A stretch of DNA of 64,000 bases from Pseudomonadota bacterium (GCA_918234285.1 CAKJXZ020000003.1:1-64000), one strand, 5' to 3'. Positions 18,826 to 62,187 are shown, counted from the stretch's first letter. Notes: generated by a model not told the origin, from the sequence alone. Numbers and translations: made by a program.

Positions 18826-19566
18826 ATGCGTTACAAAATTACGATAGAATATGACGGCACCAATCTCGTCGGCTGGCAAAAACAGCGCGAAGGACCGAGT
18901 GTGCAAGAATTTTTAGAGCAAGCCATTCTCGGTTTTTCGCACCAAACTACCGAAGTCTTCGCCGCCGGACGCACCGATGCCGGAGTTCATGCCTTAGGTC
19001 AGGTGGCACATTTCGACTTGGATTTGGATTTGAGCGAATACAAAATGCAAGAAAGCCTGAATGCCTTGTTACGCGAATTGCAGGCGCCGGTTGCCGTACT
19101 CAAAACCGAAAAAGTCGGCGCCGATTTTCACGCCCGCTTTTCCGCCAAAGGCCGCGGTTACATCTATCGCATTCTTAATCGCCGCGGTCCCAGCCCGCTA
19201 CTCATTAATCGCGTCTGGCAGGTTACCTATCCGCTTGATGTCGAAGCCATGCAAAAAGGGGCACAATATCTGCTCGGCCATCACGATTTCAGCTCATTCC
19301 GCGGTTCCGGCTGTCAGGCCAAATCGCCGCTCAAAACGCTGGATAAACTGGATATTGCCCAATCAGGTGACGAGATTATTTTTACGGTGGAAGCGCGTTC
19401 GTTTATTTATCATCAGGTACGCAATATGGTCGGTACGTTGATGCAGGTCGGCAACGGTCAACTGCAACCGGAAGACGTTAAAACCATTTTGGAATCTAAA
19501 GACCGTAAAAAAGCCGGCGTCAGTGCGCCGGCTTACGGGTTATACCTTAACAAAGTTATGTATTAA
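18826..19566 (+). CDS. truA: tRNA pseudouridine(38-40) synthase
   Basis: YDGT..GWQ.Q, AGRTDAGVHA, FHARFSA and HDFSSF motifs. Confidence 0.97.
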   Translation: MRYKITIEYDGTNLVGWQKQREGPSVQEFLEQAILGFSHQTTEVFAAGRTDAGVHALGQVAHFDLDLDLSEYKMQESLNALLRELQAPVAVLKTEKVGADFHARFSAKGRGYIYRILNRRGPSPLLINRVWQVTYPLDVEAMQKGAQYLLGHHDFSSFRGSGCQAKSPLKTLDKLDIAQSGDEIIFTVEARSFIYHQVRNMVGTLMQVGNGQLQPEDVKTILESKDRKKAGVSAPAYGLYLNKVMY

Positions 19567-21566
19567 GCCTCCATTTCCTTGCCGCGACTGCCCTGAGTAT
19601 TGGCCGGATATTTCTTTGCCGCCTGAGTCATCGCATCATGCAACGCACCGGCATTGGCCTCCAATCTGACTTCCTGAGCTTTGGCGTTTGCCTTATACAT
19701 AACAATATCATTGCCGTTTTCGTCTTTCTTGAAGGTGTAGATACCATTGGCCAACTTACCTGCATTTGTGGCATCTCTGCCCTCAAATCCGGACAAAGTG
19801 TAAACCGTCTGTGCCGAATTTGAAGCATCTACCTTCACGCGTTTCGGAGCAGCTCCGTTATAAACATCAGTTGCCCGATCGGATACCCAATGTCCGGCAT
19901 TTTGTGCGGCCTTCTTCATCTTGGCCCACATTTTATTATTATGTTCTTTAGCCTTTGTAGCCGCCTTTTCCACTGCCTTTTGAGCACGTTTGGCATCGTT
20001 CTCGGCCTTAGCTTCGGCTCTTTCCTTATCTCTTTGAGCTGTTTCCTTAGTTTCTTCCTTGGTTTCATTGGCTACGGCTTCCATAATTCCCAGATGATAC
20101 TCATCACCGGCAGCTTTATATGCAGCTTTAGCCTTTTCAAACTTTTTCGGGTCTTTTGCCAACAATTCGCGGGCTTTTTCCTTATCCGACGTTACCTTCG
20201 GATCTTCCTCAATTGCTCCGCTCTCACGGGTATTGCCCGCTACTGTGTTACCCAAGTTTTTCAGGTCATCTTCGGTCGGCGCGGTAACACCTGTCACACT
20301 AGCCGCACGCAGTTTTTCATCAAACTTGGCCTTACTGCCGACAACAACAACTTCCGGCACTTCCTCTTCAGCCGTAATACCCTCATCAGCCTGACCTGCG
20401 CGGGTATTGGTAGCCGCAGTGGCCGCCAAATTCTGTGTATCTTCTTGCGCCTTCGATCCCTGAGCTATATCCTCACCTATTGACAAGGCATCTTTGGCAA
20501 AATCGCACATGGAATTGTCATCATAACCATACTGCTTCATCATATTTATAACAAGTTGCATCATTTCGTCCGGTATGCTTGAATCATCATTACCGTTAGC
20601 AAGCGTCTGAAATGCCGACATAAAGTTGTTATATGTGGCGCTGTCAACCGCTTCCATCGTTGTTAAATCATCTCTCAGCTGATCTTTACCGGTCTTTTCT
20701 TCCGTCACCACATCAGCTTCAATTTGTTCCTCAGCCGGTGCCGCCGCTGCAGCTTCTTCCTGCGCAACTTCGGCTTGCGGTGCCGCCGCAACATAATTAT
20801 CCCGATTGTTAACCTCATTTACCTTGGCATTAAAGGCCGCACGGTCGTCAACCAACGCATTTAATTTATCGATTTGTTCGGCCGTAAATTCTTGTTTTTC
20901 CATCCAAGCTTTCAGCTTGCTGGTCGGGATATAATCACCGTTTTCGCCGTGACGAATCATACTTGCATCAAACTTGTAACCCATGGCTTCCAGTTCTTCT
21001 TTTAAGACCGTCGGCCCTGCATTCAGCGCATATTTCATATTGGCCGACATGGTTAAATTGCCGGAGCCTCCAGTTCTTTCTTCCGCTTTCGGCGCTTTAC
21101 CCGGAGCATAAGGCACTACGGTTTCTTCCTGCGTTACTTCCGGATGTTTCGCAAAATTATCCAAATCGGTCTGTCTTTCTTTGAGCCATTCAGCCATTGT
21201 TTTGCCGCCGACATTATTCTGAGCATCTTGAGCCGCTTGTGCACGCTGTTCCGGAGTCATTTTCTGATATTTATAATACCACTTTTTCTCCTCATCCGTC
21301 ATGCTCTTCCAACGCTGTTCAATAGGCTCTTTTGCCGGAGCCGTCTGTGCTCTGGTTGCCTCGCGGGAAGCCTGTGCTCTTTCTTTTTCAATACTGGCTT
21401 GTCTGTACACCTTTGACTCCGGAGGTGTTGCTACACCCGTATTGCCGAATTTTTCTTTGTTTTGGGCATCAACCTGTGCATCGTGCAATATTCCCCATGT
21501 ATTATTTCTCACTTCTTCGTCCGAAGCGCCTTGCATCCACATCGGTTTATCATTATCGTTAGCCAT
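19563..21566 (-). CDS. Large orphan protein, family member A (667 aa)
   Basis: AGGAG RBS; paralogous to 21728-23983; no signal peptide. Confidence 0.85.
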   Translation of the reverse strand: MANDNDKPMWMQGASDEEVRNNTWGILHDAQVDAQNKEKFGNTGVATPPESKVYRQASIEKERAQASREATRAQTAPAKEPIEQRWKSMTDEEKKWYYKYQKMTPEQRAQAAQDAQNNVGGKTMAEWLKERQTDLDNFAKHPEVTQEETVVPYAPGKAPKAEERTGGSGNLTMSANMKYALNAGPTVLKEELEAMGYKFDASMIRHGENGDYIPTSKLKAWMEKQEFTAEQIDKLNALVDDRAAFNAKVNEVNNRDNYVAAAPQAEVAQEEAAAAAPAEEQIEADVVTEEKTGKDQLRDDLTTMEAVDSATYNNFMSAFQTLANGNDDSSIPDEMMQLVINMMKQYGYDDNSMCDFAKDALSIGEDIAQGSKAQEDTQNLAATAATNTRAGQADEGITAEEEVPEVVVVGSKAKFDEKLRAASVTGVTAPTEDDLKNLGNTVAGNTRESGAIEEDPKVTSDKEKARELLAKDPKKFEKAKAAYKAAGDEYHLGIMEAVANETKEETKETAQRDKERAEAKAENDAKRAQKAVEKAATKAKEHNNKMWAKMKKAAQNAGHWVSDRATDVYNGAAPKRVKVDASNSAQTVYTLSGFEGRDATNAGKLANGIYTFKKDENGNDIVMYKANAKAQEVRLEANAGALHDAMTQAAKKYPANTQGSRGKEMEA

Positions 21567-21628
21567 GGTCGTTCTCCTTATGTCATAAATTGTACAAGTC
21601 TATAGTATATTTATAACATACTTTTTTT

Positions 21629-21654
21629 ATTTTGTGTATTACATTTTTGTTACA
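21629..21654 (-). promoter_or_regulatory. Conserved upstream motif TGTAACAAAAATGTAATACACAAAAT
   Basis: 26 bp identical to 24038-24063. Confidence 0.65.
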
Positions 21655-21727
21655 ATTCATTTTTTTTGTCATTTTATAAGCAAAAAGCCGGCACTTTCGT
21701 ACCGGCTTAACTTGGCTCATAAACCGC

Positions 21728-23983
21728 TTAACTGTTGGTTTTTTGTTGCGCGGCAGCACGAGCGGCAACTTGCGCCTGCTCTGAAGAACGCGCCGCCATT
21801 TCATCTTTCAAAGTCTGAATCAACGAAAGTTGCTGTCCGCCTGGTGAATAGTCCGTAAACTGACTACCGTCGTTCGCCGCAAATTTGACCGCACTGGCAT
21901 TTCCGAATTGGTACACCGTATATTTACCGTCATACAAACCGTTATGGTCTCCGCCGTCAAATCGACCGTAACCGGATAACGTATACACCGCATTACCGTC
22001 CTTATCGTGCTCGAGCGTAATCTTCCGGCTGGCAACCGCTTTCTGCATTTCTTCGGCCTTCTGCTGTTCGACCGCCGCCGTCGATTCTTTCTCCTTATCT
22101 TTCTTGGTTTTGATACCGAATGTTTTCTTAAAGAAACTGCCGACATCGTTAGCGCGATTCTTTAAGGCTTTTTTCAGGCTCTTCTTCTGCTGTTCTTCTT
22201 TAACTTCCTGTGTTGCCTGATCGGCTTTTGCTTTATCCTTCTTGGCTTTGCTCTTGACATCTGCCTTTGCTTCCGCCGCCACTTCGTCCATAATGCCTAA
22301 ATAGTACTCTTCACCGGCGGCTTTATAAGCAGCTCTTGCCTTCTCAAACTTTTTCGGGTCTTTTTTCAGCAATTCGCGAGCTTTTTCCTTATCCTCCTTA
22401 ACCTTCGGATCTTCCTCAACCGCTCCGCTTTCACGAGTGTTGCCCTCTGCCGTGGCTGCCATACTCTGATTTTCTGCTCTGTTTCTCCTCGGCCCGTGAG
22501 CAATATCATTACCTATTGCCACAGCATCCCGTGCAAAATCGCACATGGCATTATCGTCATAGCCATATTGTTTCATCATTTTTGTAATAAGCAGCATCAT
22601 TTCATCAGATACACCGGAGTCATCATTACCATTGGCAATTGTTTTAAATGCAGACATGTATTTATTGTAGGTGGCAGTATCAACCGCTTCCAACTTTGCA
22701 AAATCATCTCTCATTTTATCAATACCGGTCTTCTCAGGTGCGGATTGCTCTTGTTCGGCTGCAGGTTTTTCTTTAGCTGCCGGTGCTGCCGCATGCTCTT
22801 GTGCAGCTTCAGCCTTCGGTGCCGCTGCAGTATGCTCATGTGTAGCTTTGGCCTTCGGTGCCGGCGCGACATAATTATCACGGTTGTTAATCTCTTTTAC
22901 TTTGGCATTAAAGGCCGCACGATCGTCAACCAACGCATTTAATCTGTTGATTTGCTCGTCCGTAAATTCCTGTTTTTCCATCCAAGCTTTCAACTTGCTG
23001 GTTGGGATATAATCTCCGTTTGCGCCGTGACGAATCATACTTACATCAAACTTGTAACCCATTGCTTCCAGTTCTTCTTTCAAAACTGTCGGTCCCATGT
23101 TCAGTGCATATTTCATATTGGCGGAAAGCGTCATATTACCGCCGGCACTGCCGCTGTTATCGGAAGTGCGGGAATGGTTTGTAGCGGCCGTGTTACCGAA
23201 ACTGATATTGTTATCGGTTGTATGTTCCTGCTTTTTTGCCGATTCTTTAACGAGATTTTTTACTTCATCTGAATAATTTTTTGCCGTTTCCGGATTATTA
23301 ACCAAGTCAAGCACGGCAAGATAAATCTTGTGGCTCGGGTCGTCTTCTCTGGACGCTCCTTTCAAAAATCCCGTAAATACTCTCTTTTGTTCATCCGAAA
23401 GCGGGCTCGGAAGTCCTCTGAGCATAACATCAGCCTGTTCCCGCGTCAGATTATCTATCGGTTGTTGCACCTTTTTCTCAGTATTAGTTCTCTCATTTGT
23501 TTTTTTCTGAACGTCCCTTACCATATTTTCGACATCTTCCGAATATTCTTTGCTGGCTACCAAAACAACCGCCGTTTTATAGTAGTCGTTGGCATACCCA
23601 TTTTGTCTGGCATAGGCTTCCAATCTGTTTGCAAAGGCCTTCTTATCTTCCGGTGTTTTAAGCGCTCTGAGGTCTTTATCTACAACTTCATATAACTTTC
23701 CGCGATTCGTTCTGCTTTTGCCTTCAGTTTCTCTCTGTTTGATAAATTCATTGAAGATACCCTTTAAATCGTCTGATACCTCTATTTTACCATGGGCTAT
23801 ACTATCAAGCATAGCGGTATAAACATCATAATTGGTCTTAGCCAACTGTTTTAGCTGTTCCTTAATATGACCTTCCCGACCTTCAGAAGACATATATCCC
23901 ATACTGCCGTACTTTTTCAACCAATCTTCATATCCTGCAATTATATTTTCAATTGTCTTAACTTGCTCACTCTTATCAGCCAT
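21728..23983 (-). CDS. Large orphan protein, family member B (751 aa)
   Basis: GGGAG RBS; shares central domains with 19563-21566; terminator hairpin at ~21682-21708. Confidence 0.85.
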   Translation of the reverse strand: MADKSEQVKTIENIIAGYEDWLKKYGSMGYMSSEGREGHIKEQLKQLAKTNYDVYTAMLDSIAHGKIEVSDDLKGIFNEFIKQRETEGKSRTNRGKLYEVVDKDLRALKTPEDKKAFANRLEAYARQNGYANDYYKTAVVLVASKEYSEDVENMVRDVQKKTNERTNTEKKVQQPIDNLTREQADVMLRGLPSPLSDEQKRVFTGFLKGASREDDPSHKIYLAVLDLVNNPETAKNYSDEVKNLVKESAKKQEHTTDNNISFGNTAATNHSRTSDNSGSAGGNMTLSANMKYALNMGPTVLKEELEAMGYKFDVSMIRHGANGDYIPTSKLKAWMEKQEFTDEQINRLNALVDDRAAFNAKVKEINNRDNYVAPAPKAKATHEHTAAAPKAEAAQEHAAAPAAKEKPAAEQEQSAPEKTGIDKMRDDFAKLEAVDTATYNKYMSAFKTIANGNDDSGVSDEMMLLITKMMKQYGYDDNAMCDFARDAVAIGNDIAHGPRRNRAENQSMAATAEGNTRESGAVEEDPKVKEDKEKARELLKKDPKKFEKARAAYKAAGEEYYLGIMDEVAAEAKADVKSKAKKDKAKADQATQEVKEEQQKKSLKKALKNRANDVGSFFKKTFGIKTKKDKEKESTAAVEQQKAEEMQKAVASRKITLEHDKDGNAVYTLSGYGRFDGGDHNGLYDGKYTVYQFGNASAVKFAANDGSQFTDYSPGGQQLSLIQTLKDEMAARSSEQAQVAARAAAQQKTNS

Positions 23984-24037
23984 TTCTTTTCTCCCTGTTT
24001 AACGTTATTTATACTCTCTTTATATCACACTTTTTTC

Positions 24038-24063
24038 ATTTTGTGTATTACATTTTTGTTACA
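24038..24063 (-). promoter_or_regulatory. Conserved upstream motif (second copy)
   Basis: 26 bp identical to 21629-21654. Confidence 0.65.
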
Positions 24064-24160
24064 TTTTGCCGTTAAGTGATTTTTGCTTTGCAGAACCGCA
24101 ACAAAAAGCTTGCACCGCGGCAGTATATCGTATAATTTGGTGTCAGCAAAGGATAAGAAA

Positions 24161-24814
24161 ATGATTGCAAAATTACGCGGAATTATAGATACAATCGGCG
24201 AAGACACCTGTATCATCGACGTAAACGGAGTGGGCTATGCGGTAGCCGCTTCGGCCAAAACTTTGGGTAAATTGCGGCTCGGTGAAGAAACGACCTTGCT
24301 GACGATTATGACCGTGCGCGAAGATGATATTTCGCTGTTCGGATTTGCCGATGCCTGGGAAAAAGAATGGTTTAACACCTTAACCAAAGTTCAGGGAGTG
24401 GGCGCCAAAGTGTGCCTGAGTATTCTCTCGGTGTTAACCCCTACCCAGCTCGCGCAGGCCGTCGGCGCACAGGACAAAGCCTCTTTCTGTCGCGCTTCCG
24501 GTGTCGGTCCCAAACTGGCGGCACGCATTGTGACCGAACTTAAAGATAAAATCGTTACCATTCCGGTGACCGCCGGTAACCATCCGCTGACTTCCGCCGC
24601 AAGCGAACCGACAACCTCTCCTATTGCCCCTCAGACCGAAGTCGATTACGGCAAAAGTGAAGATGTCACCTCGGCATTGGTTAATCTCGGTTATCAGCGT
24701 TTGGAGGCTTATCACGCCGCCAGCAAAGTAGTTTCTGCCAATCCGGACGCCAACGTCGCCACCTTAATTCGCCTGGCGCTTAAAGAATTTGCCAATAAGG
24801 AATTTGAAGTATGA
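24161..24814 (+). CDS. ruvA: Holliday junction branch migration protein RuvA
   Basis: Start corrected to [39 protein letters not shown] and ALVNLGY motifs. Confidence 0.96.
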
Positions 24815-25872
24815 CAGATGACACCCGCATAGTGAGCCCGAAAGAGCAACCAGAAGACAGCCAAATCGGCAACAATCCGATTAACTTGCGCCCGAACTCT
24901 CTTGATGATTTTGTCGGCCAGCGTGAAGTCTGCGACAACCTCAAAGTGTTTATTACCGCCGCCCGTCAACGCGGTGAAGCCCTGGACCACGTTTTGCTGT
25001 TTGGACCTCCGGGATTGGGCAAAACCACCTTATCTTCCATTGTGGCCAAAGAGCTCGGTGTGGGTTTTCATGCCACTTCGGCGCCGATGATTTCCAAATC
25101 CGGCGACTTAGCGGCGATTTTAACCAATCTCGAACGCAACGACGTGCTGTTTATCGATGAAATTCACCGCCTTAATCCGGCAATTGAAGAAGTTTTGTAT
25201 TCGGCGATGGAAGATTTCCAGCTTGATTTGATTATCGGCGAAGGGCCGTCGGCGCGCTCGGTGCGCATTGATCTGCAACCGTTTACTTTGGTTGGCGCCA
25301 CCACCCGCTCCGGCCTGCTGTCAACCCCGTTACGCGAACGTTTCGGCATTCCGCTCCGGCTTGATTTCTATTCGCACGAAGATTTGAAAAAAATCGTCCA
25401 ACGCGGCGCTCGTTTGCTCAATATCGAAATTTCCGACAGCGGCGCTATGGAAATTGCCAAACGCTCCCGCGGCACTCCACGTATTGCCGGCAGATTGTTG
25501 CGTCGCGTCCGTGATTTCGGCGCGATTTCCGATAAAAAAATCATTGACGAACATATTTCCGATATGGCATTGAAGCGCCTCGATGTCGATGATTTCGGGC
25601 TGGATAATTTTGACCGCCGCTATCTTAACTGTATTGTCAAAAATTATGGCGGCGGACCGGTCGGAGCAGATACTTTGGCAGCGGCTTTGTCCGAAGAACG
25701 CGACACCATTGAAGAAGTGGTCGAGCCGTTTTTGCTTAAACTCGGCTTTTTGCAACGCACCCCGCGCGGCCGCATAATTTCGCAACTCGGCTATAAATAT
25801 TTGGGGATACGCATGCCGGCTAAACCGAGCAAACAATATGATTTATTGGAGGAAACCGATGCCGACTTTTGA
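24811..25872 (+). CDS. ruvB: Holliday junction helicase RuvB
   Basis: [22 protein letters not shown] and RGTPRIA motifs. Confidence 0.98.
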
Positions 25873-26311: not shown

Positions 26312-26392
26312 GGCATTTTCCGGTAGTTTAATCTTTTATAAAAATTTTCCGGCTAGAATGGACGCAATCACAACATTCTTAAGGAAAAACTC

Positions 26393-28438: not shown

Positions 28439-28444
28439 AACACG

Positions 28445-29961: not shown

Positions 29962-31839
29962 TCAGCGTTCGCGAGTGTCGTTTCGAGTTGCAACATTATG
30001 GGCAACAGCCGCTTTAACCTCATCCAAACTGACTCCCCACACGGAGAGATGATACTTCTTAGCCAGTTCCTCTCCGAAAATGATCTTCCCGCTTATCTCT
30101 TGCGGTAAGGCATCAAATTCTTTCAATTCGGTACAACCGTTTAAATTGAGATTACCTTCTATACTCCGCGCAATTCCTTTTAGCGACTTAAGCCGGTGAT
30201 TGCTTACCAAATCAACACTTTCTCCGATCTTTTCCGGCATTCCTTCCAACGAAGTAATTAACGTATCACCTACATCAAAATATCCCGTTACACATTTTGG
30301 CGAACCGCGCAAAGAGGTAATCTTACTACCCGAGCACTCAAAACTTCCATTCAACACAATATGCGATAAATCCGGTAATTTTTCCGTACCGTACGGGATA
30401 TAAATATCTCCGTTATAAACAAATCCGTCCGTTTGTTCCAAAAGATTATAATATTTTCCGGCTTGCTTAACCACAAACAGCGTATTTTGCTTATTGCTTA
30501 CAAAAACATCTCCCTTTATGTCCGTCGGGACATCACTCATATTTTCAATTTCGACATTAATCGCCGTCAAATTGCGGTCAATCATCGGTAAATTATCCAA
30601 CTTTTCAATCGGATTACCGCTGATATCCAAGTCTTTGACATGAGGAATAATTCCGCGCAAATCCTTCAGGTTATTTCCCGAGACATCGTAATTACCCAAC
30701 ACTTGTGCCGGAGAACCGTACAAATCCGACAATTTATTGCCGCAGCAATAAAAATTGCCCTTAACAACTAAATTTGAAAAATCCGGTAATCTTTCAAGCC
30801 CCATATCGGAAACATCCAAATCCCCGTTCAAAACAAGTTTTTTATCTTTCGGCAGATTAAATATATCATAATATTTACCACTGCATTTTATCAGCCCGAT
30901 ATTTTTGGCATCTCCTTCAATTTCCAGTTTTTTTCTTATCACAAACTCTTGCACATACGGGCGATATTTAGCCACCGGCGCTTTATCCTGCTTGCCTTTG
31001 CATTGTTCGATTTTTTTACCGCGAACCTCAAAAGTGGCGTGCGGTTCACCGTTTTCATCGCGCAACGAATAAATTTTAACCGTTTTACTTTTTAATTCCT
31101 CATCATATATTCCTTTGCCGACGCAGTGCCCCATATATTCGCTCTCAAAGTCGAGTGCCTCCGGCGTAGTCAGTTGCACCACATACATACCGTCGGCCAA
31201 ATCCATCACCGGCTTGGTGCCCTCGAGTGATTCTTTATATAATTCGGCATCATATTTCTTAAATTTACCGCCGGCAGCAATATTTTCGTGCCATTTTTGC
31301 GCCAGTTTCAAGACTTTATTAAAGCTGTTATATTCGCCGTTGGTTTTGAGATAATCCATACGGATTCGCGGCTTTTCCTGATTTTTGTTGCCTTTGGCAT
31401 TCGGATTCTTTTCGTATTTCTTTTGCGTATCTTTGGCGCGCGCTATAATTTTATTGACGTATGCCTCACCCGCCGAATACAAAAAATCGCGGCTCATGGT
31501 AATATCGTTTTTCAGCGAATCCGGTATCTTATCGGCCTTGAAACGATATACCGGCTCGCCCTTATCCATACAATTCCGCGCCCAAGTCGGTAAATCTCCG
31601 TCCATAACGTTAATCAGCGGCAAAAAGCGCATAGTATGCGGCGTTTTGGTACTCATATACGGCTTAAGCGCATAATTTGCCCATTGATACAGCATCGAGC
31701 GCACAATTTCGTCTTTGTGTTGTTGCACAAAATCAACGCTGTTGAAGTTACCATCCGTGAATATTTCCACATCCTGCCCGCGATAAACCACGTCCTTGAT
31801 ATAGTTATCCAAATCTTTGATATTGAGAATATTCGCCAT
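29962..31839 (-). CDS. PcfJ-like domain plus leucine-rich-repeat-like protein
   Basis: L.FES..MGHCVG..IYSLRD..PHATFEV..Q.KGK.D (PcfJ-like); repeats of GNFYC..N.L..L.G.P. Confidence 0.75.
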   Translation of the reverse strand: MANILNIKDLDNYIKDVVYRGQDVEIFTDGNFNSVDFVQQHKDEIVRSMLYQWANYALKPYMSTKTPHTMRFLPLINVMDGDLPTWARNCMDKGEPVYRFKADKIPDSLKNDITMSRDFLYSAGEAYVNKIIARAKDTQKKYEKNPNAKGNKNQEKPRIRMDYLKTNGEYNSFNKVLKLAQKWHENIAAGGKFKKYDAELYKESLEGTKPVMDLADGMYVVQLTTPEALDFESEYMGHCVGKGIYDEELKSKTVKIYSLRDENGEPHATFEVRGKKIEQCKGKQDKAPVAKYRPYVQEFVIRKKLEIEGDAKNIGLIKCSGKYYDIFNLPKDKKLVLNGDLDVSDMGLERLPDFSNLVVKGNFYCCGNKLSDLYGSPAQVLGNYDVSGNNLKDLRGIIPHVKDLDISGNPIEKLDNLPMIDRNLTAINVEIENMSDVPTDIKGDVFVSNKQNTLFVVKQAGKYYNLLEQTDGFVYNGDIYIPYGTEKLPDLSHIVLNGSFECSGSKITSLRGSPKCVTGYFDVGDTLITSLEGMPEKIGESVDLVSNHRLKSLKGIARSIEGNLNLNGCTELKEFDALPQEISGKIIFGEELAKKYHLSVWGVSLDEVKAAVAHNVATRNDTRER

Positions 31840-31851
31840 TATCACTCTCCG

Positions 31852-32542: not shown

Positions 32543-32655
32543 TGTAAAATTTCAAAAGTCAAGCACTATTTGCGACAACGATAAAAAAAACAATCGCACT
32601 AAAATTTCAATAGACTAAGACCAAAATATGTGTTATATTTTCTCCCGAGGTGGAA

Positions 32656-33753
32656 ATGGAAAAAAAAGATTACGTTTGGCTTACCCGCAATACCGATATC
32701 GCAAATGTCTGCAACTGTTTTGAAGATTGCGACACGGCACCGGTGGCGTTTAAGTTGTTTCGCGCAACGCACCTGCCGCAGATTCGGCAAATTTTCGCCG
32801 AACACAACACCGAGCTGTATCGCGATAAACAAGATACCTGCTGGCTTACCGTTACCGATATGACCATAAGCGATTTTTGCGATATTGCTCTGCAACATAA
32901 TTCCGACCTTATATATAACGATGCCGACGGCCGTATTTATTATGACCCGGCGGACCGGCGCAAATATCAGCATTTTCTCCGCCGCAACACCACGCAGACT
33001 CTTTCGCAACTGTCACCGCAAAGAAAGCTGAATATTCTGCTTTCCATCAGCAAAGAATGTTATATGAACCTGCGCGGCAAAGAGCGACATGAAGCGGCGC
33101 TCAACCGACAGGCAGATAAACTTAACGCACTGCTGCAGCTGCCGATATCACCCGAATTTTGGGAAAACGAACAGCGCAAGATTCGCCTGATTACCGCTGA
33201 CATCGCCCAAATCCCGCACATTAAAGAAAAACTTGAAGATTTTAATACATTGAATTTACCGGAACAAAAAAAGCTGTTATATAAGGTTGCAAGCATAACC
33301 GCAAAATACAACCGCATCAAAACTCCGCAGTTTGTACTGCTGACCACCGAACAATTACGGCAGTTTCAGCTTGATAATTGGGTTGAGGCCGACGCCTTTG
33401 CTCTTGATAAAACATTATATATATGCGCCGACAAACTCAAAGAACAAAGCGGGATTCGCTGTTTGGCTCTGGCTTGGCACGAAACTAACCATATTGCCAT
33501 GGCAACCGGAGATTATTCTCGCTTTCCGCCGGTGGAAGATATGTTGAACCCGCGCCTTAATTATATTAACGGCATTGAGCAATCATATATTTTCCACCCA
33601 CAGGAAAAAATAAATTATGCGCTTGAAAAGATGTTTATTGCGGAATGCGCTGCCCGTACCGGAGTTAAAAAACTCGGCAATACCTTTGCGCCGGCGGCGG
33701 AATTTGACGTTGCCGCCCAATATATTGCCCGTTCTTTGCAGAAAAAATACTGA
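32656..33753 (+). CDS. Hypothetical protein with HExxH zinc-metallopeptidase-like motif
   Basis: LAWHETNH plus downstream Y..HPQE..Y; GAGG RBS before ATG 32656. Confidence 0.65.
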   Translation: MEKKDYVWLTRNTDIANVCNCFEDCDTAPVAFKLFRATHLPQIRQIFAEHNTELYRDKQDTCWLTVTDMTISDFCDIALQHNSDLIYNDADGRIYYDPADRRKYQHFLRRNTTQTLSQLSPQRKLNILLSISKECYMNLRGKERHEAALNRQADKLNALLQLPISPEFWENEQRKIRLITADIAQIPHIKEKLEDFNTLNLPEQKKLLYKVASITAKYNRIKTPQFVLLTTEQLRQFQLDNWVEADAFALDKTLYICADKLKEQSGIRCLALAWHETNHIAMATGDYSRFPPVEDMLNPRLNYINGIEQSYIFHPQEKINYALEKMFIAECAARTGVKKLGNTFAPAAEFDVAAQYIARSLQKKY

Positions 33754-40431: not shown

Positions 40432-42150
40432 TCAGCGCCCTTCACCGCTCTTAATATCGTCTTTAAACGATTCGTTGAACTTCTTCGGAGCGTGGTCCGC
40501 CGGCGTCTTCTTCTCCGCCAATTTTCCCAAATCAACACCGTCAGGCGCGATATAATCGTCTTTACTGAACACAATCTTGTTCTTTTTTCTGACATTCATG
40601 GCATGCATATTCTTACGCACATCTTGCAATTTGGAAACAATTTTCTCACGATTTTCTTCCGACTTTATTCTGCCGGTAATACTGAGGAATTTATCGAGCA
40701 TCTTATCATCGATATTACTGAATTTTTCCGTATCCATTTTGTTGATGATAAGATCCGGCAAATAACCGCTGATTTGAGAATATTCACTAAGCTTATTAAT
40801 AGCTTTTTCCATTTCTTTTTTACTCGGGGTGCCGATTTTATTGATATCAATTTTATAATCGGAATCCGGATAGTTTATATTCAAAAGTGCGCAAATTTCG
40901 CTATTCAGACGCCGTACATTTTTCTCATGACGATAAACATTGCGCATTCTCTTTTCAAACATGGTTTTTTCATGGTTCACCGCCATCTCTTTTTGTGAAG
41001 AATCTTCAAAAGCCAGCGCTTTTTTCATAGTCTCTTTTACTTTGTTTTCAATATCATCTTGCCCTCTGTATTTATCGGCGGTAGAGGCCAATATCTCTCT
41101 GATTTCGGCACGATGTCCCGCAACTTCGACCAATTTATTCAAAGCGCCGAAGGCTTGACTTTCCTGTCCGTCGGCAAATATCAAGCCGCCGTTTTCATCT
41201 GTCAAAGCGTTATGGAGCGTATACATGGCACATACTGCCAAGCGTTCCTTAACCTCCGGATTCTTTTCCGCTTTTATGGCCTTATTGATATAGGTCATAA
41301 TCTTTGCGGATTTATCTTTGATTTCGGCCTCACTGTCAGCCGGAATACCTTCCATGGCTTCACGGAAAATAACTCCGTAAACATCACCGCGTACGGAACC
41401 ATTGGCGATTTGCGCAACGCTTTTAATGTTTTCCATAATGGTTTCAACGGCCTTTTGCGGATCTTTCTTCATGGCAAATTTCAGCTCTTGTTCAAAAATA
41501 TCCGCACGTTCTCCTCCACTCGGATTGTTTTGGAACGATTCGATAATCTTTTCAAAGTTACCTTTGTTTCTGTCATACCCGTTTTTCATAAGCGCAATCC
41601 GTTCTCCCAGTATATTGGAAACCGGTAAGATACTCGGTACAATCGGATAAGCTTTTTCATAAATTTTATGTATTTTTTCATACGTTGCCAAATCCGGATT
41701 TGCGGTTTTGTTATAGTTTTCGGTATGCTTATTAAGTGTTGCCAGAACAACCTTAGTCTGCCGGATTGCCTCACTGTTGGAATGCTTATACTTAAACTTT
41801 GAAATCACCCTGTCCGCCAGTTCGGTTAAAAGCCCGATATCTCCTTTTCCGGCCGCTTTTTCGATTTTCATAGCACTGTTAAGAACAGACTGAATATTTT
41901 TAGGATTCAGCTCAATCGCCGCCTGCATATTTTTCGCCAGTTCATTATTTTTCATACTGCCGTTCGTCAGAGCAGCCGCAAATTCTTCTGCACGCTCCGC
42001 CAACAAATTTGCCACATCGTTAGAAGCTTGAACTTTTTCTTCGTCTGTCTGCGCATCGCTCAATACGGCATCTATAATGTTGGTGGCTGTTTTCGGGTTG
42101 AATTCTTTGTGGATTTTCGCTATTCTGAAACTGTTAAAAGTATAAGCCAT
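40432..42150 (-). CDS. Large alpha-helical orphan protein (572 aa)
   Basis: AGGAG RBS, own promoter and terminator, C-terminus ..KSGEGR. Confidence 0.8.
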   Translation of the reverse strand: MAYTFNSFRIAKIHKEFNPKTATNIIDAVLSDAQTDEEKVQASNDVANLLAERAEEFAAALTNGSMKNNELAKNMQAAIELNPKNIQSVLNSAMKIEKAAGKGDIGLLTELADRVISKFKYKHSNSEAIRQTKVVLATLNKHTENYNKTANPDLATYEKIHKIYEKAYPIVPSILPVSNILGERIALMKNGYDRNKGNFEKIIESFQNNPSGGERADIFEQELKFAMKKDPQKAVETIMENIKSVAQIANGSVRGDVYGVIFREAMEGIPADSEAEIKDKSAKIMTYINKAIKAEKNPEVKERLAVCAMYTLHNALTDENGGLIFADGQESQAFGALNKLVEVAGHRAEIREILASTADKYRGQDDIENKVKETMKKALAFEDSSQKEMAVNHEKTMFEKRMRNVYRHEKNVRRLNSEICALLNINYPDSDYKIDINKIGTPSKKEMEKAINKLSEYSQISGYLPDLIINKMDTEKFSNIDDKMLDKFLSITGRIKSEENREKIVSKLQDVRKNMHAMNVRKKNKIVFSKDDYIAPDGVDLGKLAEKKTPADHAPKKFNESFKDDIKSGEGR

Positions 42151-52332: not shown

Positions 52333-52344
52333 ATTTGTATTTTT

Positions 52345-55141: not shown

Positions 55142-55150
55142 ACAAATTCC

Positions 55151-56013: not shown

Positions 56014-57236
56014 TATGCTTCTCTGAAAAACTTTTCGGCCTTTATCAATGCCGCCACCAATGCATCTATGTCTTCTTTGGTTGTATATAAACCGAGTGAA
56101 GCCCGTGCCAGTGAATTATACCCCATCCGATTGACAATCGGCTGTGCGCAATGGTGCCCGATTCTGATGGCAACATTTTCTTTATTCAGCACAAAAGCCA
56201 GATCTTGCGGATGTATTTTACCGACGGCAAAACTGAACACCCCGCCTTTATTTTTAGCCGTGCCGATAATTTTGAGTTTCGGCACTTCGGCCAAACGTTC
56301 GTTGGTATATTTGATAAGCTCTTCTTCGTGTCGAACAATATCTGCAAACCCGATTCGCTCTATATATTTTATACCTTCCGCCATACCGACGGCCTGCACC
56401 GATGCCGGAGTACCTGCCTCAAAACGGGCCGGAATATCGGCATACGTCGTTTTTGCAAATGTAACATTATCAATCATGTCTCCGCCAAACTGATACGGCG
56501 GCATTTTTTCCAAAACCTCCGCCTTGCCGTATAACACGCCGATACCGGTCGGGCCGTATATTTTATGGCCGGAAAACGCCGCAAAATCACAATCAATATC
56601 CTGCACATCCAGCGGATAATGCACCGCAAACTGGCAGGCGTCCACCAACACCTTGGCCCCAACTCCGTGCGCGGCCGCGGTAATTTTTTTAATCGGAAAC
56701 ATGGTACCCAAAACATTGGACATGGCACTGACGGCCACCAGTTTGGTCTTTTCGTTCAAACGCGCGAGAAATTCTTCTTCGATATAATCGCCGTTATCCG
56801 CCACCGGAAACACCGCCAACTTGGCTCCGCTGACTTCACACAGATGTTGCCACGGCACTAAATTGGCATGATGTTCGGCCTCCGAAATCAAAATCTCGTC
56901 ACCGGCACGAACATTCTGCAACCCCCAGGTTGCCGCTACCAAATTAATCGATTCCGTAGCGTTGCGTGTAAAAACTATTTCCCTTGTTTCGCGGGCATTG
57001 ATAAACTGCCGCACCGTTTCACGCGCCTGTTCATAAGCCGTGGTAATGGCATCGGCAAAATAATAAGTGCCGCGATGCGGATTGGCATAAAATTCATAAT
57101 AAACGCGACGCATGGCATCAAACACCGCCTGCGGCTTTTGTGCTGAAGCGGTAGTATCGAGATACGCCACCGGTTTGCCGTTGATACGCACATCGAAAAT
57201 CGGAAAATCTTTCCTTATTTTATAAACATCATACAT
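56013..57236 (-). CDS. sufS: Cysteine desulfurase SufS
   Basis: SGHKIYGPTG PLP site and RIGHHCA group II motif. Confidence 0.95.
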   Translation of the reverse strand: MYDVYKIRKDFPIFDVRINGKPVAYLDTTASAQKPQAVFDAMRRVYYEFYANPHRGTYYFADAITTAYEQARETVRQFINARETREIVFTRNATESINLVAATWGLQNVRAGDEILISEAEHHANLVPWQHLCEVSGAKLAVFPVADNGDYIEEEFLARLNEKTKLVAVSAMSNVLGTMFPIKKITAAAHGVGAKVLVDACQFAVHYPLDVQDIDCDFAAFSGHKIYGPTGIGVLYGKAEVLEKMPPYQFGGDMIDNVTFAKTTYADIPARFEAGTPASVQAVGMAEGIKYIERIGFADIVRHEEELIKYTNERLAEVPKLKIIGTAKNKGGVFSFAVGKIHPQDLAFVLNKENVAIRIGHHCAQPIVNRMGYNSLARASLGLYTTKEDIDALVAALIKAEKFFREA

Positions 57237-57364
57237 CGCATATTCCTTTAAAGCTTTTTACATATTTAGCCTGTAAAAAAATATTTTTCAAGATTTATAT
57301 TGCACCGAATAAAAAATCTCCGACAACAACCGCTGCCGGAGATTATGAAGAATACCTCTGTAGC

Positions 57365-57814
57365 TTATTCGACAATCAAAATCAGACTGTCTTTAACCGC
57401 CGTAACTTTGGCCTTATCGCCTTTTTTCAGCGGCTTTTCGGTATATGCCAACCAATAAGTATCGCCAACCTTAACCTTGGTTTGGCTGTCGACTACATCT
57501 TCGGCAATCGTCACCGTACGACCGACAAATTGTTGCGCCGAGTCATTCAAATTGCGATATTCCTGCGGTGCCTGCACTCTTTTGAAAATAAAGCGATAAG
57601 AATACCAGCCGATAACCGCAAAAATTGCCGAAAATGCGGCAAACCAGATGATTTGCGTGGAGAGCGCCATCGGTATAAAATACGTCAAAACGCTCATACA
57701 CAGCCCGGCCAAACCGAACCAAATCAAATAGGTTCCCGGCACTATCAATTCCAAAATCGACAAGGCCAGACCGATAATCAGCCAGTTTGTCGCCGCCGTT
57801 TCAAATAACATCAT
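57365..57814 (-). CDS. NfeD family protein
   Basis: LELIVPG..LIWFG TM region and C-terminal OB fold; paired with SPFH. Confidence 0.9.
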   Translation of the reverse strand: MMLFETAATNWLIIGLALSILELIVPGTYLIWFGLAGLCMSVLTYFIPMALSTQIIWFAAFSAIFAVIGWYSYRFIFKRVQAPQEYRNLNDSAQQFVGRTVTIAEDVVDSQTKVKVGDTYWLAYTEKPLKKGDKAKVTAVKDSLILIVE

Positions 57815-57822
57815 AGTTCTCC

Positions 57823-58734
57823 TTATTTTTTAGGTTTTTCAGCAACGTTTTTAGCAATCTCGGCAATACCGGCAATCGTGCCCATAACCTGCGTGGCATC
57901 AACCGGCAACATCAGCAGCTTCTCATTCGGCGAAGTAACAATACCTTGCAAAGCATCGATATATTTCTGCCCCAAGAAGTACGATAAAGCGTTTTGATTA
58001 CCCTTTTCAATGGCGTCGGAAACGAGTTTGGTAGCCGTTGCTTCGGCCTGAGCTGAACGTTCGCGAGCCTCGGCTTCACGGAATGCGGCTTCTCTGTTAC
58101 CTTCGGCTTCCAAAATAACCGCCTGTTTTTCACCTTCCGCTTTCAAAATTTCCGCCTGACGCAAACCTTCGGCTTCCAAAATGTTGGCACGCTTATCGCG
58201 CTCGGCCATCATCTGGCGCGCCATGGAATCAATCAAATTTGCCGGTGGGGTAATATCCTTAATTTCTACACGCGTAACTTTTACGCCCCACGGAATGGTT
58301 GCCACGTCGACCACATCCAACAGCCGTTGGTTGATGATGTTGCGTTGCGACAACAGCTCATCGATTTCCATACTGCCGATAACCGTACGAATGTTGGTCA
58401 TTACCAAATTCATAATCGCAAAATCGAGATTTTCCACCTGATAGGCGGCCTTTACCGCATCCTGAATTTGATAAAACAGCACGCCGTTCACCGTTACCAT
58501 AGCGTTATCTTTGGTAATCACTTCCTGCGAAGCCACATCCAAAACCTGCTCCTTGCGGTTGATTTTGGCGCCGATGTTTTCAAAAATCGGAATCAATATA
58601 TGAAAACCCGGTTTCAGCGAACGAGTATATTTACCGAAGTTTTCCACGGTATATTCATAACCCTGTTGCACGATAACCACATACTTCAACAAAATCAGAA
58701 ACACCAAAATAACCAGAACGATAGCAACTTCCAT
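57823..58734 (-). CDS. SPFH/stomatin-like protein (QmcA-like)
   Basis: ITKDNA, WGVKVTRVEIKDI.PP and QMMAER.KRA motifs. Confidence 0.93.
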   Translation of the reverse strand: MEVAIVLVILVFLILLKYVVIVQQGYEYTVENFGKYTRSLKPGFHILIPIFENIGAKINRKEQVLDVASQEVITKDNAMVTVNGVLFYQIQDAVKAAYQVENLDFAIMNLVMTNIRTVIGSMEIDELLSQRNIINQRLLDVVDVATIPWGVKVTRVEIKDITPPANLIDSMARQMMAERDKRANILEAEGLRQAEILKAEGEKQAVILEAEGNREAAFREAEARERSAQAEATATKLVSDAIEKGNQNALSYFLGQKYIDALQGIVTSPNEKLLMLPVDATQVMGTIAGIAEIAKNVAEKPKK

Positions 58735-58878
58735 TGTTTATTCCTTTCACATAATAACCGTTAAACCGTATCTGAACATAAAATATACTTTGTTTTATAT
58801 TTTCGCAAGCAAAAAAACACCCCGCCGTAAAGCAGGGTGTTAAATTCAGTATTTATGCTTGTTATTTCGGGTTCAACA

Positions 58879-61800
58879 CTACATTTCGCGTCCGCTTTTA
58901 CCGAAATTTTTCAAGACCGACTTAACTTTGTTTTCCGACAGCTTTGAAGCCCTTACTTCGGTAACATTTCCTTTGGCGTCAATATCGCGTTCATACATGT
59001 TTTTACTGTCGCCGTCACGAATGTATTCTCTTATTTCGCCGTTTTGATTGCGGATTTTACCGATTAACTGGTCTTCTTTACCGCCGTCACCGCCCACGGT
59101 GTTTGACGCCAAATTCGCACCCTTGTAGGTGGCAACGTCGTGACCGTTATGGTGTTCAAGTTTCATTCTGACACCGTCAACGGTACGAGTTTCGGTATTA
59201 CCATCGTTGCTGACCTTAACGTGAATTTTATGACCGTTAACCGTACCCTTAACATTATAGCCGTGCTTTTTCATTTCTTCCGCCGATGTAATCGGGTTAT
59301 CCGGATGTTTGGCATTATACTCTTCCATCGCCACTCTGCCGGCATATTCTTCGGCTGTGGCATTGGCATCGGCGGTTACCGGCATATAAACCGTATGTTC
59401 ATGCTTTTTAGTGAAAATACGTTTAAACCAACTTCCGGATTCGCTTTTGCCGGTAACATTTCCCATCTTCTTCTGTTCTTCAATGGCCTTTTGCGCATCT
59501 TCGGTAAGGCCGCTCTGTTTGGTCGGGTCCGGAACAATTCGCGGCTGACCTTCCGGTGTATCCACGCCTCTTATCGGTGCGGAGCCGCCATTACCGCCGG
59601 CCTCGTTGCCTTCTGCAGAACCGTGACCGCCGTTACCGCCGGAAGAACGGGTCCAACCGTGGTCGCGTTCCACTACTTCGCCGCCCGGACGAATAATCAT
59701 GTGTCCGGAGTTAAGTTTACCGGCTATCCGATCGAACTCGCCGCTGTCAAGTTTGGCCTGAAATTCTGCTTGTTGCGCATCGGTCAGTTGCAATTTGCTT
59801 AAATAAGAAGTCATACCGGATTTAACAATATGCGTATTACTGCCGCGTAAATCGTCAAAGTCCTTACCTTCCATCAAGCCCATTTCCTTCAAAATTACAT
59901 AAGTGGCATTCGGCATGTCCGTAACTTTTGCATCGGTAATATTAAATTCGTGAGTTGCCGGAGTTTCGGTAATTACATCACTGCCACCGTTATCCTGTTC
60001 TCCAAGCTCTTTACCGACGGCGGCACCGGTTTGTGCACCGTCCGCCAATTCATTATTCTCCGGAGCGCCGAAGAAATAGTTTTTAAGTCCCGTAACTTTT
60101 TCTCCGACAAAATCCTGTGCCGTATCGCTCAGCATAAATCCGCCGGCAGCCACACCGAGAGCAGCGGCTAAACCTTTGCCTTTGCTCCCCTTAATTTGTC
60201 CGACCAATTCCATAGCCTTTTCTTTGTCTTCTGCCGACATATTCGGAGCATATTGATCCAACTTTGCCAACACTTTTTCATCGCCGTTACGTATCAATTT
60301 AGAAAGATCTTTGGCGATTTTTTGTGCCGTAGTGGCCTTTTTAATACCGAACAACCCTTTGCCCGGCTCTTCCTGTTGCGGCAAATATTTCTGCAGCAAA
60401 TCCGCCAAATCTTTTTGTGCTTTGGCAGCATCATGACGGACATTGAGATATTGTCCCAAACCGGCCGCCGCCGTAATCGTACCGGCAACTTTGGCTTTGC
60501 CCAACCCCATAATGGTAGTCTGCGCCGCGTTTTGTGCCGCCTGAGCGCCCCATCCGGTCATACTGCCCCACGCTCCGAATGCTAAAGTTCCGGAAGCAGC
60601 CATTACCGTGGTAAACGCGGCCGAGGTCAGGAACAAACCGGCCTGACGAGCCAAATTGATGGTTTCTTCACGATTATCTTTCAAATATCCGAAAAAGCCT
60701 TTAATTGAGGTTTTGCCGTCACTCTTTTCTTTATAATTTCTCCACGATTTTCTAACGGCTCCAAACAATTTACAACCTTGACGCGCCGTTATACCGATAG
60801 GGCCGAATGCCGCCGCCAAACCGGCAGTCCAGGCCACGTTTTTGATACATTCCTTAACCGCGCCCATAACCGTAGGATGCTTAGCCGTCATTTGATTTTT
60901 GGCTTCTGCCGCTCTTTCCGGCGTCTGTTTCATACCGGTTTTTCTGCCCAAGCGAGAAGCATAGATTGCATTTTTATCGGTATAAATACCGTTGGCAATC
61001 GTATAGGTATTGGTAGCCACATACTTGGCAAATTTTGCCATATATTCTTTCTTCTTTTCCGGATCTTTCTGTGCCTCATTCCATTCGTCAGCAGAAAGTT
61101 TATTATCCTTCAGATATTTTTTCAGCCACTCATTTCTCTCTTCCGGCGAACTCATGATATTGTTGAAAGTCAGCGTAACCGTTGCCAGATATTGAGCGCT
61201 GATTTCTTCAACTTTTTGATGATAACGCTCAATATTCTTTTGGTTGTCATCGTCAGGCGTTTCCAAAGAAAGCTGGGTTAAAGCAGTGGTGCGAATAACA
61301 TCCAAAGTTTCTTTGAAAACTTCCGGATTTTCTTTTGCAAACACTACCGTGGCCGGGTCTTTTTTCAATTCTTCCGGCATCGAATCCGTATACGGAGTTT
61401 TTTCGGTCAGAGCCGCCCATTTATCTTCGTTTTCTTTGATTTTTTCCGGGCTCGGCAACTCGCCGTCCAAACCGTTATTCTTGTCGTATTCTGCCAGTTT
61501 TTGTTCCAACTCGTCGGCTTTTTCGTATTTGTAATTCGGATCTGCCCCCAATAAAATATCGGCATAATCTTTAACCAACGGAGCATTGTTTTCATCAAGA
61601 TTGATTTCTTTGATTTCCTTGGCGGCATATTTTTCAATGTCTTTCATCTCGCCGTTGATTTCAGCCATTTTCTCGGCAATTTCTTTAGCCTCCGGAGTAT
61701 CTAAAGAAGCAAATTCCTCACCGAATTGCGATACTCCCTGACTGACCAGGTTGTTATAATCTTCTTTTAATTTTTTATAATATTGCAACAAATCATACGA

Positions 61801-62187
61801 CGTCATGCCTTCGAATTTATCAGATGTTTTTTCTTCCGGTTTCGGAGTCGTATTTTCGCCCACCGGCTGTTCAGGTTTCGGAGTTGTATTTTCGCCCACC
61901 GGCTGTTCAGGCCGCGGAGTCGTATTTTCGCCCACCGGTTGCTCGATTTCTTTTAACTTTTCGCGACGTGCCGAAATCTGTTTGTTCAACGAATCCTGCA
62001 ACGAGGTAGGCAGATTAAAGTTGCCCATAATACTTTCCAATTTATCCAGCGATTCTTTGTCGAAATCATCCAACTGGATAGTATTAAACTTGCGCAAAAT
62101 GCGGTCAAGTTCCTCTCCCTGCAAAGTTTTAACGTCATCAAGAGAATTGATTTTATCTCTGAATTCTTGATCGGTCATATCAGCCAT
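58879..62187 (-). CDS. Very large orphan protein, family member C (1102 aa)
   Basis: Start corrected to MADMTDQ (AGGAG RBS). Helical N-terminus, central hydrophobic Ala/Gly segments, C-terminal motifs shared with members A and B. Confidence 0.82.
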   Translation of the reverse strand: MADMTDQEFRDKINSLDDVKTLQGEELDRILRKFNTIQLDDFDKESLDKLESIMGNFNLPTSLQDSLNKQISARREKLKEIEQPVGENTTPRPEQPVGENTTPKPEQPVGENTTPKPEEKTSDKFEGMTSYDLLQYYKKLKEDYNNLVSQGVSQFGEEFASLDTPEAKEIAEKMAEINGEMKDIEKYAAKEIKEINLDENNAPLVKDYADILLGADPNYKYEKADELEQKLAEYDKNNGLDGELPSPEKIKENEDKWAALTEKTPYTDSMPEELKKDPATVVFAKENPEVFKETLDVIRTTALTQLSLETPDDDNQKNIERYHQKVEEISAQYLATVTLTFNNIMSSPEERNEWLKKYLKDNKLSADEWNEAQKDPEKKKEYMAKFAKYVATNTYTIANGIYTDKNAIYASRLGRKTGMKQTPERAAEAKNQMTAKHPTVMGAVKECIKNVAWTAGLAAAFGPIGITARQGCKLFGAVRKSWRNYKEKSDGKTSIKGFFGYLKDNREETINLARQAGLFLTSAAFTTVMAASGTLAFGAWGSMTGWGAQAAQNAAQTTIMGLGKAKVAGTITAAAGLGQYLNVRHDAAKAQKDLADLLQKYLPQQEEPGKGLFGIKKATTAQKIAKDLSKLIRNGDEKVLAKLDQYAPNMSAEDKEKAMELVGQIKGSKGKGLAAALGVAAGGFMLSDTAQDFVGEKVTGLKNYFFGAPENNELADGAQTGAAVGKELGEQDNGGSDVITETPATHEFNITDAKVTDMPNATYVILKEMGLMEGKDFDDLRGSNTHIVKSGMTSYLSKLQLTDAQQAEFQAKLDSGEFDRIAGKLNSGHMIIRPGGEVVERDHGWTRSSGGNGGHGSAEGNEAGGNGGSAPIRGVDTPEGQPRIVPDPTKQSGLTEDAQKAIEEQKKMGNVTGKSESGSWFKRIFTKKHEHTVYMPVTADANATAEEYAGRVAMEEYNAKHPDNPITSAEEMKKHGYNVKGTVNGHKIHVKVSNDGNTETRTVDGVRMKLEHHNGHDVATYKGANLASNTVGGDGGKEDQLIGKIRNQNGEIREYIRDGDSKNMYERDIDAKGNVTEVRASKLSENKVKSVLKNFGKSGREM
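61834..61944 (-). repeat. Coding 36-bp tandem repeat x3 (EQPVGENTTP[RK]P)
   Basis: Three near-identical units visible in both DNA and protein. Confidence 0.9.

Follow-up and report, generated by a model that had tools for sequence, protein, structure and literature searches.

The Bep proteins of Bartonella are alphaproteobacterial paralogues, accompanied by a VirB/VirD4 system, in which variable N-termini are combined with one helical domain of approximately 100 residues (BID), and which arose by duplication and shuffling. Here, we describe proteins of comparable design from a 64,000-nucleotide stretch of a Pseudomonadota genome (GCA_918234285.1, CAKJXZ020000003.1:1–64000; hereafter the window, meaning the whole stretch analysed). 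Two large proteins encoded in the window, A and B, and another, D, encoded elsewhere in the same genome, share a helical block that very probably also occurs in a third window protein, C. Unlike the Bep domain, this block has no Pfam match, lies centrally and not C-terminally, and is also found inside C, a predicted membrane-hairpin protein; the likeness to Beps is one of architecture.

Other described systems resemble parts of the family. PodJ, TipN and PopZ-type organisers are, like C, large, helical or coiled-coil, low-complexity, single-copy and poorly conserved, and they are membrane-anchored, as C may be, but no family match connects them with C, and the exchange of modules between species and the presence of soluble paralogues in hot spots set the present family apart. 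The tandem-repeat and ankyrin effectors of the Anaplasmataceae are likewise acidic and Cys-poor, with tandem repeats, no signal peptide and a small genome containing ankyrin-repeat proteins; however, those are substrates of type I or type IV secretion systems (T1SS, T4SS) of proven intracellular bacteria, and our proteins have no sequence relation to them. Finally, the effectors of type III secretion systems (T3SS) and T4SS that carry transmembrane domains, for example the Inc-like proteins (PMC6110835), share with C a start unlike a signal peptide, putative paired helices of moderate hydrophobicity, large soluble flanks and fast evolution. In contrast to these effectors, C is a core, syntenic protein without homology to known effectors, in a genome without a T3SS export gate, and its membrane insertion is predicted.

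Modular soluble proteins share a new helical domain

The earlier note on this DNA had described A, B and C as three large orphan proteins, and all three ORFs are present at the given coordinates and open on the minus strand. The features of A and B (window positions; aa, amino acids; HMM, hidden Markov model) are as follows.

19563–21566, minus strand: protein A, 667 aa, a soluble mosaic of its own N-terminus, block, module M2, extra insert, module M4, Lys-rich helix and beta tail
20772–21074, minus strand: block of A, residues 165–265 (block HMM, 1.1e-55)
19566–19877, minus strand: beta tail of A, approximately residues 564–667 (tail HMM, 2.2e-35)
21728–23983, minus strand: protein B, 751 aa, a soluble mosaic of an N-terminal helical domain (1–270) unlike that of A, block, M2 (415–500), M4 (512–580), Lys-rich helix and beta tail
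22850–23152, minus strand: block of B, residues 278–378 (block HMM; model pLDDT 74–85)
21731–22045, minus strand: beta tail of B, residues 647–751 (tail HMM; five strands followed by a long helix, pLDDT 81–89)

In a BLASTP comparison, A and B matched at E 6e-112 with 47% identity across 466 columns. The match takes in the block (A 169–262, B 282–375), further helical modules and the VYTLSG tail, while the N-termini remain unaligned, which bears out the earlier description of these shared parts behind unrelated N-termini; A and B are true paralogues. A search of the genome with B identified a fourth member, D (contig C30, 48630–50543, 637 aa), in which the order of modules is shuffled, with the beta tail directly behind the block and the 'KKFE' helical module later. 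Module searches detected a fifth protein, E (contig C14, G000:C14:70910–73660, minus strand, a 917-aa open frame), which lacks the block but contains M2 and M4, along with tandem repeats, a small beta end and Lys/Glu/Gly repeats. Both D and E sit among housekeeping genes. Two adjoining genes for ankyrin-repeat proteins (379 and 504 aa; L017:13688–16356, G000:C30) lie approximately 3 kb from D.

Among 11 aligned members of the family, the block is the sole part present in all, with 41 invariant columns, and is surrounded by at least four unrelated N-terminal types and by optional modules. In the model of B (mean pLDDT 64.7; M2, 83–90), the block consists of helices 289–296, 298–307, 328–337, 342–353 and 355–369 and a short hairpin at 318–325. 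With approximately 85 residues and five helices, the block constitutes a new helical domain. Every member is hydrophilic, with GRAVY values of −0.76 to −1.28, and poor in Cys (0.1–0.3%), with a pI of 5.0–6.7; A, B and D are rich in Lys/Glu/Ala, have no hydrophobic N-terminal stretch and contain no 19-residue Kyte–Doolittle window of 1.2 or above. A, B and D recombine five or six modules in variable chromosomal slots.

Contigs from an independent study span the truA–A, A–B and B–ruvA junctions at approximately 99% identity. Contigs from one metatranscriptome match part of B at approximately 97% identity, at most a weak hint of transcription; where RNA contigs of run X20 leave stretches of A and B uncovered, this does not indicate that the genes are silent.

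A remote form of the block in protein C

Protein C has the following features.

58879–62187, minus strand: protein C, 1102 aa from ATG, single-copy and syntenic, of a wider family of 900–1640-aa proteins
61828–61944, minus strand: three tandem repeats rich in Pro (EQPVGENTTPxPE), within a linker modelled with low confidence (pLDDT <50 at residues 84–119)
60853–61830, minus strand: N-terminal helical domain, residues 120–445 (pLDDT approximately 85–95, many invariant residues)
60028–60852, minus strand: helical-hairpin region, residues 446–720, basic, Ala/Gly-rich and weakly hydrophobic, conserved in 11 of 23 sampled genera
59644–59961, minus strand: block of C, residues 743–848, a diverged 'C-type' variant with an extra hairpin
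58882–59472, minus strand: C-terminal alpha/beta domain, residues 906–1102 (pLDDT 82–92), a ten-strand meander plus terminal helix

The frame is open as far as a TTG at 62262, but all 11 aligned family members begin with an ATG-encoded 'MA', and the ATG at 62187 is therefore the likely start. From there, a large acidic helical N-domain leads to the basic hairpins and then to the block, after which come a low-complexity linker and the beta-rich C-domain. The model (mean pLDDT 69.7) is confident for the N-domain (120–445) and C-domain (906–1095), moderate for the block (55–67) and below 50 for the hydrophobic region. The central hydrophobic Ala/Gly hairpin reported earlier consists of real stretches, which are only moderately hydrophobic: the 19-residue Kyte–Doolittle maxima are 1.44 (residues 516–538) and 1.29 (672–690), and the other Ala/Gly helices are weaker. 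In this hydropathy scan, by which Sec signals were judged, C showed no signal peptide-like start.

The earlier note had aligned the A/B block with C by eye. By BLASTP of A and B against C, this register was found only at E 2.4–3.2, which is not significant, and an HMM built from the A, B and D blocks did not report C among 23,042 six-frame ORFs of the genome at E≤10. The bridge-only and G-type-only HMMs searched against the genome likewise left window C unreported. In this direct form, the profile test that the note had proposed for refuting the relationship went against it, while intermediates, profile comparisons and helices support C as a remote homologue. The A/B/D HMM matched three orthologues of C from sister species, namely, P0020, P0022 and an ORF of genome G008 (1.4e-13, 5.4e-16 and 2.3e-13), and these matches fall at the same protein position as the block of C. 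Block-only comparison by hhalign gave P 2.4e-5 (probability 75%, 71 columns) for A/B/D against C-type, P 1.4e-4 (53%) for bridge against C-type and P 1.5e-5 (79.5%) for bridge against G-type. All 12 reversed targets gave P≥0.05, and the observed score, 33.0, was not attained in any of 150 column shuffles (mean 11.9, maximum 22.5); against the alignment of the whole C-type family, the best match was at the expected place, but with P 0.002.

In an iterative search started from the A, B and D blocks, over a set made up of the genome ORFs and 52 fetched proteins that had been pre-selected with a profile including C-type blocks, intermediates were recruited in round 1, P0017 and P0018 in round 2 (4.8e-5, the weakest link of the chain) and window C in round 3 (4.8e-14). 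No unrelated genome ORF entered through round 5; EF-hand proteins drifted in at round 6. Helix predictions for the two blocks largely agree, with 45 columns coinciding out of 55 helical ones in B and 53 in C, the two models share two helices with identical boundaries, and intermediate sequences such as P0035 and P0042 bear motifs of both block types. A profile including all four types (A4) gave 1.5e-39 for B, 6.2e-38 for A, 1.4e-33 for C and 1.8e-33 for D over the genome; this profile is circular for C, and the non-circular support comes from the bridging orthologues, hhalign with its shuffles and the iterative search.

Convergence or chance, with an unrelated helical module having replaced the true block at the same position, would explain the silence of the A/B/D-only HMM, the BLASTP E values of 2–3 and the moderate confidence of the C block model. 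It would also agree with the behaviour of a profile including the bridging members, which reached other C-type proteins only at E 0.1–2 and did not list P0012. We consider this explanation improbable in view of the clean reversed and shuffled controls for the hhalign match, the closing of the iterative chain without unrelated ORFs, the equal position of the block in orthologous proteins, the coinciding helix boundaries and the intermediates with motifs of both types. The block of C is, with high confidence, a remote homologue of that of A, B and D.

The second proposed link, between the C-terminus of C and the tail of B, was unsupported. An HMM of the A/B/D tail (nine proteins) picked out A, B and D alone within the genome and left the whole C family undetected at E≤10. 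When this tail was compared with the C family by hhalign, P was 0.32, an iterative tail search converged on 11 A/B/D-type proteins, and a profile of the C-family C-terminus detected no A/B/D protein at E≤1. Homology of the tails was rejected on sequence. The sharing of two domains holds for A and B, whereas C shares one remote domain with them.

Comparison with known families and folds

Searches against Pfam (best E 0.024–0.38, all below cut-off), NCBIfam (best E 0.032, with 13.5 bits where the cut-off is 352), PHROGs (best E 0.0025, to a family of unknown function and not at a useful score) and PADLOC (no match) gave no assignment. Nothing was found below E 0.14 in sequence searches of the PDB, where the best matches of the block profile were calmodulins (weak E of 0.14–0.9, profile positions 34–68). 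The block is new to all libraries searched.

Foldseek returned no row at E≤1e-3 for C and B against the PDB, and the best row for B in BFVD had E 3e-3 and TM 0.06. In the ESM Atlas, C scored at most 0.81, against clusters without a name, and B matched nothing. Overall, the structure searches, which used whole-protein models and are therefore weak for single domains, gave nothing above noise, including for the C-terminal parts considered as Polo-box or single-layer beta-sheet folds (TCP10, OspA). A homologue search with a 23-row C-like profile yielded ten proteins, one named 'hypothetical protein', and a search with B among 5.77 billion clustered proteins yielded eight further proteins, none with a Pfam domain or an informative name. 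The literature on the lineage and its secretion systems, not searched by protein name as these proteins are nameless, contained nothing on them.

Distribution and evolution

The source genome (2.0 Mb, 71 contigs, rated 100% complete) belongs to a genus of uncultured Alphaproteobacteria with small genomes; its nearest named relatives are metagenome-assembled genomes from the rumen labelled Alphaproteobacteria. The A4 block profile detected 43 proteins at E≤1e-3 among 1.84 billion representative proteins, nine of which were already in hand. Of the 34 new ones, 24 were scanned with Pfam (the ten weakest being left out); 21 had no family, and three had unrelated families and multi-stretch matches and are likely spurious. 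Within the bacterial family, the block was present in nine of 121 genomes, all of genus g1 (eight of nine sampled, plus this genome), and absent from 112 genomes of 22 other genera, such that one of the 23 sampled genera was positive. It occurs once per genome, in an ORF of 1029–1075 aa, and four times in this genome. With B as the query, four of 41 relatives were matched. The core of C-like proteins (the hairpin region) was found in 35 of the 121 genomes and 11 of the 23 genera, in ORFs of 580–1644 aa.

The gene for C is embedded in a conserved neighbourhood:

57823–58734, minus strand: SPFH/Band 7 gene, directly downstream of C
57365–57814, minus strand: NfeD-like ORF, 149 aa, called by eye
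62390–63868, plus strand: PMT_2 glycosyltransferase gene, divergent from C, a conserved neighbour

Judged by eye, the NfeD-like ORF, which follows the Band 7 gene, combines a beta C-terminus with two or three membrane helices. This downstream pair is conserved within the genus. In related loci, PMT_2 was present beside C in five of five and Band 7 in four of five, the contig ending in the fifth; in genome G095, the same synteny, including the NfeD-like ORF, is kept even though C is only approximately 20% identical. In three other genera, the C-like gene lies between ileS and alr and is flanked by two other conserved orphans. The order in these loci (L032, L033 and L034, from g25, g35 and g29) is ileS, an orphan of approximately 500–556 aa, the C-like gene, an orphan of 847–984 aa, alr and tatD; the flanking orphans of these loci are homologous to one another and without a Pfam family, and phmmer found no homologue of them in the genome of the window.

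Orthologues of C are 33–89% identical, and C is 33–87% identical between loci whose Band 7 neighbours are 94–99% identical. The identities are also discordant along the protein. P0021 is 90% identical to window C in the block, but 42% in the N-domain, 30% in the hairpin region and 28% in the C-domain, whereas P0022 is 24% identical in the block, 56% in the C-domain and 32% in the hairpin region. C evolves fast and as a mosaic, with modules exchanged between species. The dN/dS ratio was 0.15–0.16 for the whole of C and 0.02 for its block, the most constrained part of C, compared with 0.007–0.027 for Band 7, 0.03–0.04 for sufS and 0.10–0.14 for PMT_2. Together with the reordered modules of D and the block-less protein E, these discordant identities support a lineage-specific modular family with swappable parts more strongly than the earlier note had proposed.

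In the block tree, the A/B/D clade (support 90/99) and the C-type clade (100/100) are separate, with the bridging C-like blocks unresolved between them (midpoint root only), a topology consistent with one event in which soluble proteins acquired the block. C is probably the ancestral host. The usual home of the block is C, from which it was copied into the soluble A, B and D in a sub-lineage including this genome; these three proteins are a recent soluble expansion in variable hot spots. We hold with confidence this account of a new, genus-confined domain with its usual home in C and copies in soluble proteins.

The variable slot and the remainder of the window

A and B occupy a variable slot, which is framed as follows.

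18351–18426, minus strand: tRNA-Thr, bordering the slot
18826–19566, plus strand: truA, bordering the slot
24083–24814: ruvA, the other border
24083–25872: ruvAB (Pfam)

The slot is empty in a sister species (G095), where truA and ruvA are only 92 bp apart; in G004 it contains a membrane protein and a methyltransferase-like gene, and in G001 an A-like gene, a B-like gene and a third gene for an acidic repeat protein. In G004, the DNA methyltransferase-like ORF has a DPPY motif (L045:5941–6705) and a 179-aa neighbour, which marks the slot as a hot spot of accessory genes. The G001 protein (623 aa, L044:4288–6159, between the B-like gene and ruvA) has four or five 'YGYTD..EF' repeats that recall M2 of A and B, but phmmer gave no link at E≤1e-3.

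The window is chromosomal (contig C3), and Pfam annotation of its 43 ORFs identified a prophage and housekeeping genes including secDF, sucCD, sufS and PPDK. The lambda-like prophage extends from 127 to approximately 18,100 (18108), is encoded entirely on the minus strand and ends beside tRNA-Thr (18351–18426); its genes include those for tape measure, tail tube, capsid E, S49 protease, portal, large terminase and a ParB-methyltransferase. At 18361–18419, the metagenome contigs of four runs show breaks or pile-ups, as expected for an integration site. Other large ORFs without a clear family are located at 29962–31845 (a 627-aa PcfJ-like protein adjoining lexA), 32650–33753 (367 aa) and 40432–42150 (572 aa).

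Secretion systems and possible functions

The T3SS export gate gene FHIPEP (PF00771) was not found in this genome, rated 100% complete, whereas it was detected in control genomes; a T3SS-type translocon, as the earlier note had considered, is therefore an unlikely role for the family. The sheath gene VipB (PF05943) of the type VI secretion system was also not found in the genome. T4SS genes are present, namely, VirB4 with three TrbC/VirB2 pilin genes on contig C17 and a VirD4-type coupling protein (739 aa, T4SS-DNA_transf/TrwB) on contig C24, and VirB4 is single-copy in 119 of the 121 family genomes. At the T4SS locus (L018, G000:C17:12001–32000), the three consecutive TrbC/VirB2 genes lie upstream of VirB4, five ORFs after VirB4 have no Pfam match, and type IVb pilus genes (TcpQ, secretin, PilO) adjoin.

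The reading that we rank first, tentatively, is that the members of the family are exported and interact with a partner or host, most plausibly as substrates of the VirB4/VirD4 T4SS. C would insert into a membrane by hairpins whose hydrophobicity is too low for the usual targeting to the inner membrane, the block would serve as a protein-binding or delivery adaptor common to all cargoes, and the activities specific to each protein would reside in its variable N-terminus and tail. This ranking is based on the weak hairpins, the positive C-termini of C-like proteins, the ankyrin genes, the small genomes and the hypervariability with module exchange; the T4SS genes themselves, the lack of a hydrophobic N-terminal stretch in A, B and D, the emptiness of the A/B slot in a sister species and the closeness of the ankyrin genes to D were also counted. 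The last 25 residues are net positive in 20 of 20 C-like proteins and reach at least +4 in 11 of 20, compared with 13.8% of 1,457 genome ORFs, although these counts are not independent, as C-like proteins are kin. Membrane effectors of T3SS and T4SS have a hydrophobicity just under the threshold of inner-membrane targeting (PMC6110835), and the maxima of 1.29–1.44 in C would fit this sub-threshold rule.

Several observations weigh against export. Co-occurrence between block and secretion system, the check suggested in the earlier note, gives no contrast, with the T4SS in 119 and the block in nine of 121 genomes; it is uninformative because VirB4 is in nearly every genome of the family, and conjugation or the building of a pilus could be the task of this T4SS. 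A, B and D have an ordinary C-terminal charge (−1 to +3), their block is central and not C-terminal, and a search of A, B, C and D for a translocation signal, a chaperone or a eukaryote-like domain identified none. The structure searches were equally silent, and the contigs of one metatranscriptome over part of B are the only RNA evidence. Moreover, C is core and syntenic and adjoins housekeeping and SPFH/NfeD membrane genes, which fits a cell-autonomous role.

Such a role is specified by a possibility that we judge almost as likely as export: C as a scaffold anchored in the inner membrane, with a cytoplasmic N-terminus and hairpins that keep both ends cytoplasmic, would organise the envelope or a microdomain, and A, B and D would be cytoplasmic partners or competitors using the block on the same ligand or on C. 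The single-copy, syntenic position of C directly upstream of the SPFH/Band 7 and NfeD-like pair throughout the genus agrees with this, as do the breadth of the C-like core (35/121 genomes, 11/23 genera), the purifying selection on C (dN/dS of the block, 0.02) and a start unlike a signal peptide, with a long acidic N-domain before the first hydrophobic helix. Coiled-coil scaffolds of Alphaproteobacteria also diverge fast. Nevertheless, housekeeping scaffolds do not usually exchange whole modules between diverged species or lie in a hot spot as A and B do, the hydrophobic helices fall below the strength of typical membrane spans and were modelled at pLDDT <50, and the C-like gene is away from SPFH genes in other genera. 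It is less likely, and in our view doubtful, that A, B, D and E are cargo of mobile elements or conflict systems (polyvalent or internal virion-style, anti-defence or exclusion proteins) with a block borrowed from C. The slot of A and B does lie beside the lambda-like prophage and is occupied in G004 by a methyltransferase-like gene and in G001 by an additional repeat protein, and the best, non-significant fold rows for B were a phage ejectosome (E 0.07) and large uncharacterized phage proteins (E 3e-3, TM 0.06). On the other hand, TM values of 0.05–0.1 mean no shared fold, no PHROGs or PADLOC family was matched at a useful score, tRNA-Thr and truA lie between A/B and the prophage, and D and E are among housekeeping genes.

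Returning to export through the T4SS, its boldest form, which we regard as unlikely, would make the block a new T4SS delivery or docking domain, BID-like, that marks the translocated repertoire of bacteria living in or on rumen eukaryotes. The C-like proteins would then be a conserved, family-wide membrane-inserting effector, and A, B and D newly invented soluble effectors hijacking the same delivery domain.

Significance

These results define an unnamed domain and a large mosaic protein family in abundant uncultured Alphaproteobacteria of the ruminant gut. A hairpin protein that is both core and hypervariable, a recent expansion of soluble proteins through domain capture, the exchange of modules across species and a family-wide T4SS together make these proteins good candidates for contact with rumen protists, other bacteria or phages. 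If export is true, they would offer an initial view of how the lineage lives, and a new delivery or interaction domain; if not, the family would be a well-documented case of domain birth and shuffling within one genus.

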